A DNA stretch of 50,906 bases from Anaerolineae bacterium. GTDB taxonomy: Bacteria > Chloroflexota > Anaerolineae > UBA1429. Each line of letters starts with the position of its first letter. Position 1 is the first letter of the stretch. Both the position numbers and the translations under genes were made by a program. Below the pieces are notes generated by a model, which was not told the DNA's origin, did not search any database, and saw nothing but the letters and a program-made list of their open reading frames with translations. Location of the stretch: assembly GCA_049975585.1 (NCBI GenBank), contig JBNGEB010000001.1, positions 7,992-58,897 on the forward strand, in the 5' to 3' direction. Positions 44,403-44,553 of this stretch are shown in pieces.

Positions 44403-44497
44403 GTCTCCGAGTCAAAAGGCCTAAAGGGTAACCCACGGTCGATGACCGATAGGGTTCGAGGGGAAACGCTCGAGCCTCCCGCGCTTGGAAAGGAGAT
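44403..44497 (+). promoter_or_regulatory. Structured 5' leader, riboswitch candidate copy 1 (possibly Moco-motif-like)
   Basis: A closing helix GUCUCC (44403-08) / GGAGAU (44492-97) encloses several hairpins (GGGUAACCC, GGUCGAUGACC, CGAG-GGGAAACG-CUCG). It shares the blocks UCUCCGA, GGCCUAA, GGAAACGC and UUGGAAAGGAGA with the minus-strand element at 49545-49660. Confidence 0.6.
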
Positions 44498-44517
44498 CAC
44501 ACGCTGGCGCGCTTGCA

Positions 44518-44553
44518 GCCGGCGTCGCTCCTTTGCGGCGCCGGCTCGTGTGT
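44518..44553 (+). terminator. GC-rich hairpin of the leader expression platform (terminator/sequestrator candidate)
   Basis: GCCGGCG (44518-24) / CGCCGGC (44539-45) followed by UCGUGUGU. The loop contains CUCCUUU, which is complementary to AAAGGAG at 44489-95. Confidence 0.4.

Follow-up and report, generated by a model that had tools for sequence, protein, structure and literature searches.

A Moco-family riboswitch lacking P3 precedes an ECF transporter operon with SUOX/PruR-like domains in an Anaerolineae bacterium

The ECF system ykoEDC(F) of Bacillus subtilis is controlled by a TPP riboswitch, which represses the importer of the cofactor or of its precursors. The operon analysed here, located in a window (the whole stretch of DNA under study) of 50,906 nucleotides from an Anaerolineae bacterium, shares with it the gene order S, fused AA', T, the YkoE-family S-component (PF09819) and, by analogy, the repression of an importer by a riboswitch for the corresponding cofactor or its precursors. 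It differs in the riboswitch class, an extra transmembrane helix, two putatively extracellular SUOX-like domains and the presence of PruR-like lipoproteins.

For the Moco RNA family, to which the riboswitch belongs, we know of no demonstration of ligand binding in vitro. Even for the E. coli Moco riboswitch the evidence on the ligand is genetic, and both terminator platforms and platforms with the RBS in P1 have been published for Moco RNAs (PMC2408646). The E. coli moaA riboswitch (PMC2408646) and the RNA of the window have in common the family, the P1/P2/P4/P5 core, the GAAA tetraloop, the CUCCGAG...AAAGGAG strands and the ligand-OFF logic, the direction of which is predicted in the window. 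In E. coli P3 is present and the RBS is concealed within P1, whereas the window RNA is devoid of P3 and carries a separate hairpin and an antiterminator; furthermore, the target is moaABCDE in E. coli and a putative importer in the window.

P3 is missing from 58 of 176 Moco RNAs, and its loss is correlated with the use of the tungsten cofactor (Regulski et al. 2008, PMC2408646); reviews from the Breaker laboratory later treat "Wco" as a riboswitch class of its own. Tuco/Wco RNAs, e.g., the triple arrangement of Syntrophomonas wolfei (PMC2408646; PMC9481103), resemble the present system in the absence of P3, the terminator stems after the aptamer and the anaerobic hosts, and in one relative (locus L029) the RNA likewise precedes a TupA-like tungstate transporter. 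Their published associations comprise MPT synthesis, tupABC and W-enzymes, and neither an ECF transporter nor a PruR-like protein has been reported among them. Unlike these associations, in locus L032 the same P3-less variant precedes a molybdenum-type enzyme of the XDH family.

The periplasmic pterin-binding proteins PruR of Proteobacteria (PMC11194511; 7kos, 7rkb) and the lipoproteins of the window share a minimal secreted SUOX fold of about 135 aa without the Mo-ligating cysteine. A pterin-stacking tyrosine and tryptophan have been described in PruR (PMC11194511); in the family of the first window lipoprotein the Mo-ligating Cys is absent and the tyrosine of ADGY and the tryptophan of RWV are invariant, and from the sequence these two residues would correspond to the pterin-stacking pair at the sandwich positions. 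PruR acts together with the c-di-GMP enzyme DcpA and binds small pterins (PMC11194511), whereas the window proteins belong to Chloroflexota, accompany an ECF operon and Moco-family riboswitches, and have RSEGE or RCDCG at the position of the PruR PW motif. No DcpA-like GGDEF/EAL gene is found in the cluster. A PruR-DcpA type of pterin signalling was rejected, with neither the DcpA partner nor the PW motif present and only the fold and the Tyr/Trp positions shared.

Identity and conservation of the leader RNA

The initial annotation proposed that the 188-nt gap between glgP and the ECF S-component gene is more than a spacer. The length, as read from the sequence (glgP ends at 44377, and the ATG starts at 44566), is borne out, and the gap contains an RF01055 aptamer beginning 16 nt past the glgP stop. 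The elements are the following:

41807-44377: glgP-like gene
44393-44512, plus strand: Moco/Wco riboswitch aptamer (RF01055), P3-lacking variant, copy 1 (63 bits)
44403-44408, plus strand: P1 5' strand GUCUCC (RF01055 alignment; covariation of helix 1)
44492-44497, plus strand: P1 3' strand GGAGAU, overlapping the switching segment AAAGGAG (44489-44495)
44411-44446, plus strand: P2 and distal hairpin, with 44411-44421 paired to 44437-44446 and AGG-GUAA-CCC at 44425-44434
44447-44451, plus strand: P2/P4 junction CGAUA, 5 nt, at the usual place of P3 (P3 columns deleted)
44452-44477, plus strand: P4, GGGUUCGAGGG-GAAA-CGCUCGAGCCU, with the GAAA tetraloop at 44463-44466
44478-44488, plus strand: P5 mini-hairpin, CCUCCCGCGCUUGG region (RF01055 alignment and structural alignment of homologues)

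Comparison of the whole window with Rfam 15 at gathering thresholds (36 for RF01055) gives exactly two matches, both to RF01055, the Moco RNA motif. Copy 1 scores 63 bits (E = 6.8e-13) over the full model, positions 1-135, with the P3 positions deleted, and 109.6 bits against the clade-specific covariance model R1. In the RF01055 alignment it possesses P1, P2 with the distal GUAA hairpin, P4 with its GNRA-type GAAA tetraloop, P5 and the conserved CUCCGAG and AAAGGAG strands, and all conserved core nucleotides are intact. In the tetraloop receptor of P2 the near-canonical CCUAAA...CACGG stands in place of the CCUAAG...UAUGG of the family. The resemblance to the Moco motif, suggested in the initial annotation, is correct: RF01055 exceeds its threshold, TPP (RF00059) is absent, and in a permissive local scan of 44300-44700 RF01055 is the sole credible match, with TPP and the other Rfam families at noise level. 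With no P3 hairpin between P2 and P4, the leader is a member of the Moco RNA family with the P3-lacking (Tuco/Wco) architecture, a feature that the initial annotation does not mention.

The closing helix between GUCUCC (44403-44408) and GGAGAU (44492-44497), proposed earlier from complementarity, is the real P1, present in the RF01055 alignment and paired in 99.3% of the cells of 68 sequences; the P4 hairpin also lies where it had been seen. The fate of GGUCGAUGACC is different. It had been read as an independent hairpin, which is not part of the conserved fold; according to the Rfam alignment and the covariation it forms the 3' strand of P2, facing the 5' strand GUCAAAAGGCC (44411-44421). RNAfold also draws the local hairpin, and this candidate was rejected, as covariation favours the long-range P2.

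Covariation in homologous leaders, on which the initial annotation had staked its proposal, is strong. In the 68-sequence alignment, which is fitted to the model, 92.8% of the cells are paired against 39-47% with the partners slid, 15 of the 29 pairs change on both sides (278 cells with double-sided changes), and none of 500 shuffles matches the observed covariation score. Both-sided changes affect 8 of 9 pairs in helices 2 and 3 (P2) and 6 of 11 in helix 4 (P4), where 93% of the cells are paired. A structure-independent MAFFT/RNAalifold analysis of 11 sequences yields 12 compensatory pairs.

Relatives of the protein encoded downstream, with 34-87% identity, occur in at least 80 species-representative genomes, all of them MAGs of Anaerolineae or other Chloroflexota. 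Of the 12 related genomes tested, 11 have RF01055 above its gathering score immediately 5' of the orthologous gene. A clade covariance model, built from the RF01055 matches in related genomes, places the aptamer ahead of the fusion gene at 63 of 80 loci, the riboswitch being missing at the other 17. Across these 63 genomes the upstream neighbours differ, and the riboswitch is linked to the ECF gene and not to glgP. In nearly all ECF-associated copies P3 is missing and replaced by a junction of 4-6 nt, and the copies differ in length through extensions of P2 or P4. Six loci (L009, L010, L011, L020, L023 and L025) have a 127-aa ORF between riboswitch and fusion gene (e.g., L025:5610-5993), which matches no family and contains several CQLG[LC]F repeats; five of these loci carry an insertion of 39-45 nt in the P4 loop, while the extra length of L020 is counted in P2.

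Expression platform and competing explanations

Downstream of the aptamer, three further elements can be recognized:

44517-44546, plus strand: terminator-like hairpin of 12 bp, loop UCCUUU, U-poor tail UCGUGUGU
44528-44534, plus strand: antiterminator element CUCCUUU, complement of AAAGGAG (44489-44495)
44557-44568, plus strand: RBS GGAGG (44557-44561) and start codon ATG (44566-44568)

The hairpin pairs 44517-44528 with 44535-44546, including one G-U pair, with a predicted energy of -26.3 kcal/mol, and the RBS follows 11 nt 3' of it. The hairpin of GCCGGCG (44518-44524) and CGCCGGC (44539-44545) holding CUCCUUU, as initially described, is present, but the stem is longer. Similarly, the alternative pairing of AAAGGAG with CUCCUUU is real, but the latter occupies 44528-44534 and not 44529-44535.

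The same design recurs in related loci, where a GC-rich hairpin 3' of the aptamer is followed by a U-run, and the top of its 5' arm and its loop carry CCUUUCC(A), UCCUUUCC or CUCCUUU, complementary to the invariant aptamer 3' strand UGGAAAGGAGAU. A perfect complement of at least 7 nt to the 3' 12-mer of the aptamer is found in 35 of 51 leaders, against 1.4 expected from shuffles; all 35 elements fall within a strong hairpin, in its 5' arm, stem top or loop, and in 27 of these leaders at least four T occur within 40 nt downstream. The earlier interpretation of mutually exclusive helices as a riboswitch platform is thus upheld by a conserved antiterminator/terminator design. In L004 and L008 the 3' strand is a variant, UUGAAAAGG, and the matching element lies inside the U-tract, so that these two loci are not counted as a case of compensatory change. 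Eight loci (L022, L032, L040, L044, L061, L072, L076 and L077) have two terminator-like hairpins in succession after the aptamer, the first with a GUCUCC-like sequence resembling the P1 5' strand; these leaders may represent a more elaborate platform.

In the window itself both the GC-rich hairpin and the antiterminator are present, and the switching elements are 100% conserved across its clade. With P1 forced and the terminator formed, the leader folds at -75.1 kcal/mol, against -76.2 kcal/mol for the antiterminator MFE, i.e., the two conformers are nearly isoenergetic, 1.1 kcal/mol apart. The U-tract seen in the 27 relatives is absent from the window clade: the window and its closest relatives L001, L002, L003 and L041 have the CUCCUUU register and tails of the type UCGUGUGU or CAUGCUUU. 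Consequently, canonical intrinsic termination is doubtful there.

Family membership, covariation, the conserved competing element and the gene linkage are established by these data, and the RNA is a true member of a family already known, its expression platform being of a standard type. The direction of the switch, termination as its read-out in this organism and its ligand are what we infer. An abundant pterin cofactor, in the Mo or W form, would bind the aptamer and lock P1 (GUCUCC, 44403-44408, with GGAGAU, 44492-44497), sequestering the GGAAAGGAG strand; the GC-rich hairpin 44517-44546 could then form and the ECF operon would be switched off, by intrinsic termination in most relatives. When the cofactor is scarce, AAAGGAG (44489-44495) would pair instead with CUCCUUU (44528-44534), i.e., with the top of the hairpin 5' arm and the loop, breaking the hairpin and permitting read-through into 44566-48173. 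Control of the ECF operon by a cofactor-OFF Moco-family riboswitch, operating through competition between P1 and the antiterminator, is regarded as clearly probable; the related Anaerolineae loci would have the classical antiterminator/terminator arrangement, with the same ligand-OFF direction.

In the unconstrained MFE structure the P1 5' strand UCUCC (44404-44408) pairs with the RBS GGAGG (44557-44561), about 150 nt away. Such a pairing, if real, would hide the RBS when no ligand is bound, against a simple OFF logic; we regard it as a thermodynamic artefact of SD/anti-SD-like sequences.

No sigma-70-like promoter is recognisable upstream of the aptamer in the glgP-aptamer stretch of the window. 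In low-GC relatives an extended -10-like TGnTAnAAT lies 4-10 nt upstream of the aptamer, which suggests that the riboswitch heads its own transcript there, but this pattern cannot be transferred to the window clade. In the window, transcription may continue from glgP into the leader, where the riboswitch would serve as a conditional terminator. The region contains four canonical terminators against 3.7 expected, i.e., no enrichment, and the organism may use atypical terminators. The 49-nt spacer between the convergent genes for EcfT and lipoprotein 2 (48174-48222) lacks a canonical terminator; the one hairpin there, GGAAC/GUUCC, is weak.

These features bear most directly on an explanation that keeps the aptamer and the helix competition and lets the hairpin of the GC-rich window clade affect translation initiation, Rho or mRNA stability instead. 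In that case the clade-specific CUCC element could reach the GGAGG RBS, a mere 11 nt past the hairpin, and precisely those five loci whose element has shifted to the CUCCUUU register have lost the U-tract; the lack of enrichment of canonical terminators, with none in the convergent spacer, points in the same direction. However, the RBS is predicted to be unpaired when P1 and the hairpin are both formed, and CUCC is buried in the stem top and loop of a hairpin of -26 kcal/mol. The hairpin after aptamer copy 2 has a similarly G/U-rich tail, suggesting that this is the usual appearance of a terminator in the organism. On balance, a mechanism other than termination is considered unlikely, though it deserves to be kept in view. 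The masking of the RBS by CUCC, as originally suggested, was rejected: most relatives have CCUUUCC, which contains no CUCC, and their RBS lies beyond the U-tract terminator, so that the feature is not conserved, and when P1 is forced the predicted fold leaves the RBS unpaired.

It is considerably harder to believe that the aptamer is a relic in decay, with a hairpin that does no more than end glgP transcription and with ECF genes expressed independently of the cofactor. Its closeness to the glgP stop (16 nt), the lack of a recognisable promoter and the replacement of the riboswitch by a PadR-type regulator in some lineages would fit such decay, but the aptamer scores far above threshold with an intact conserved core, the switching elements are invariant in the clade, and the linkage to the ECF gene, not to glgP, persists in 63 genomes with varied upstream neighbours. 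Chance complementarity or another riboswitch class such as TPP, for which the whole-leader fold z-score of only -2.16 might be quoted, is already refuted by the Rfam scans and the covariation: no other credible Rfam family is found, and the covariation and recurrence statistics exclude chance. Cofactor-OFF control through P1 and the antiterminator is accordingly retained as the preferred reading.

Genes under the two aptamers and in related loci

The window contains the following genes and a second aptamer:

44566-45939, plus strand: gene 1, YkoE-like ECF S-component with a seventh TM helix and two SUOX/PruR-like domains (Pfam, AF2, Foldseek)
45943-47391, plus strand: EcfA-A' fused double ATPase (TIGR04520, 324.6 bits, cutoff 315)
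47388-48173, plus strand: EcfT, CbiQ family (PF02361, E = 5.9e-25)
48223-48732, minus strand: PruR/SUOX-like lipoprotein 2 (Pfam, sequence motifs)
48960-49436, minus strand: PruR/SUOX-like lipoprotein 1, without the Mo-ligating Cys, under copy 2 (Pfam, AF2, Foldseek)
49529-49668, minus strand: second RF01055 aptamer, with P3 (70.7 bits), followed by a terminator-like hairpin at 49527-49487 with tail UUUGUGUCU

Gene 1 encodes a protein of 457 aa, identical over its full length to a database protein (100%) whose public annotation reads only "ECF transporter S component". The assignment as an S-component, made already in the initial annotation, stands, since Pfam identifies PF09819 (YkoE-type), but the protein is not a plain S-component, being fused to two tandem beta-rich C-terminal domains, for which the matches are Moco domains of the SUOX family and the pterin-binding protein PruR. 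The AF2 model (pLDDT 85.7) contains seven long helices, the seventh at 198-221. The top Foldseek match is the YkoE-type S-component 5edl, which we take to be the YkoE structure, with a TM-score on target of 0.74, and SUOX/PruR matches accompany it. Arginine-rich loops at the N-terminus, 117-124 and 179-196, together with the seven helices, suggest by the positive-inside rule that the C-terminal domains of the modelled protein lie outside the cell. The S, A/A' and T components are encoded together (PF09819, TIGR04520, PF02361), as in a group I ECF system.

The lipoprotein genes are convergent with the ECF operon in the window, and their products of 158-169 aa have the lipoboxes LTSC and LAGC. 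The AF2 model of lipoprotein 1 (pLDDT 86.5) matches SorA (E = 1e-9), SoxC and YedY, and the best target coverage is obtained with PruR (7kom, 7kos and 7rkb, the last with neopterin), at a TM-score on target of about 0.7. Copy 2 has a tetraloop receptor of canonical sequence, and its tail UUUGUGUCU is G/U-rich, like that of copy 1. One locus thus holds both a P3-less and a P3-containing aptamer. Among the 10 largest other ORFs of the window, no other Mo/W genes were found (ATP synthase subunits, RACo, G6PD, a kinase and similar), and no W-enzyme was found in the window.

In most relatives the genes form a single co-directional cluster, in which the S-fusion, EcfAA' and EcfT are followed by a protein of about 300 aa, a lipoprotein of the PF01663 nucleotide-pyrophosphatase family and one or two PruR-like lipoproteins. 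The protein of about 300 aa is membrane-anchored, has two CxxCH haem-c motifs and no Pfam match, and is encoded between ecfT and the lipoproteins. The dihaem and PF01663 phosphodiesterase/nucleotide-pyrophosphatase genes can be seen at L016:9652-11682, with equivalents in about 50 loci. In the window clade these two middle genes are absent, and the lipoprotein genes are inverted and placed under a P3-containing riboswitch.

The sensor also varies. Loci L028, L035, L038, L039, L046-L048, L050, L055, L056, L064, L069 and L070 have no riboswitch, and a PadR-family regulator gene (about 190 aa) lies immediately upstream instead. A conserved palindrome, TATTTACAAAGTAAATA with ATTAAATA, is found about 40-70 nt upstream of the fusion gene in the PadR loci. 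In these cases a protein repressor seems to have taken the place of the RNA sensor.

Ligand, substrate and significance

The association with Mo/W cofactor genes includes the SUOX-fold proteins, a TupA-like ABC system in L029 and an XDH-family enzyme in L032. In L029 (2395-5856) the genes after the P3-less riboswitch encode an ABC permease, an ATPase and a TupA-like (tungstate) binding protein with a fused C-terminal SUOX-like domain, and the ECF fusion gene comes directly after them; the TupA-like match reaches 224 bits, below the cutoff of 400. In L032, tandem P3-less RF01055-type aptamers (3327-3450 and 3550-3673, minus strand) lie upstream of a 913-aa gene product of the XDH/aldehyde-oxidase family. 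The former points to the tungsten side and the latter to molybdenum, and the XDH-family association fits poorly with a strict rule by which P3-less RNAs sense tungsten. The ligand of copy 1 is probably the pterin cofactor, in either its molybdenum or its tungsten form.

Published Moco regulons comprise moa/mob/moe, modABC, tupABC and cofactor-using enzymes (PMC2408646; PMC3766115), and the regulon tables of Sun et al. 2013 contain only mod, tup, moa, mob and moe genes (PMC3766115). In the literature searched, no link between Moco riboswitches, or molybdopterin/molybdenum cofactor, and ECF transporters was found, and no bacterial importer for a molybdopterin-type cofactor. The ECF S-fusion operon and the PruR-like lipoproteins are new regulon members, absent from the published Moco regulons.

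By analogy with the TPP/ykoEDC system, and given the match to 5edl, the simplest reading of the operon is a putative importer for the sensed cofactor or a pterin precursor, and a molybdopterin-type salvage importer is plausible. A more specific and tentative proposal, which we advance with reserve, is that the riboswitch gauges the Mo/W-pterin pool, while extracellular PruR/SUOX-like modules hand a molybdopterin-type pterin to the YkoE-like ECF importer. These modules could be the two domains fused to the S-component and the one or two lipoproteins, and candidates for the pterin are Moco/Wco, MPT and a precursor. A prior processing of dinucleotide forms could fall to the nucleotide-pyrophosphatase-family lipoprotein that most relatives encode alongside. 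Alternatively, the operon may handle tungstate or molybdate, or have an extracellular redox role, in view of the dihaem protein of the relatives.

The RNA extends a well-known riboswitch family by a representative from Anaerolineae, and ties the Moco family to an ECF transporter with outward-facing domains of the pterin-binding type, a transporter conserved in at least 80 species-level genomes. The presence of P3-less and P3-containing aptamers over one gene set offers a clean comparison for the proposed Mo/W specificity of P3. Furthermore, the sensors are interchangeable, the same operon standing under an RNA sensor or, apparently, under a PadR-type protein sensor with a palindromic operator. 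If salvage is indeed the function, the operon would be the first bacterial uptake system for a Mo/W cofactor or its pterin; and if the substrate is of the molybdopterin type, this oxygen-labile cofactor may be shared in anoxic communities.
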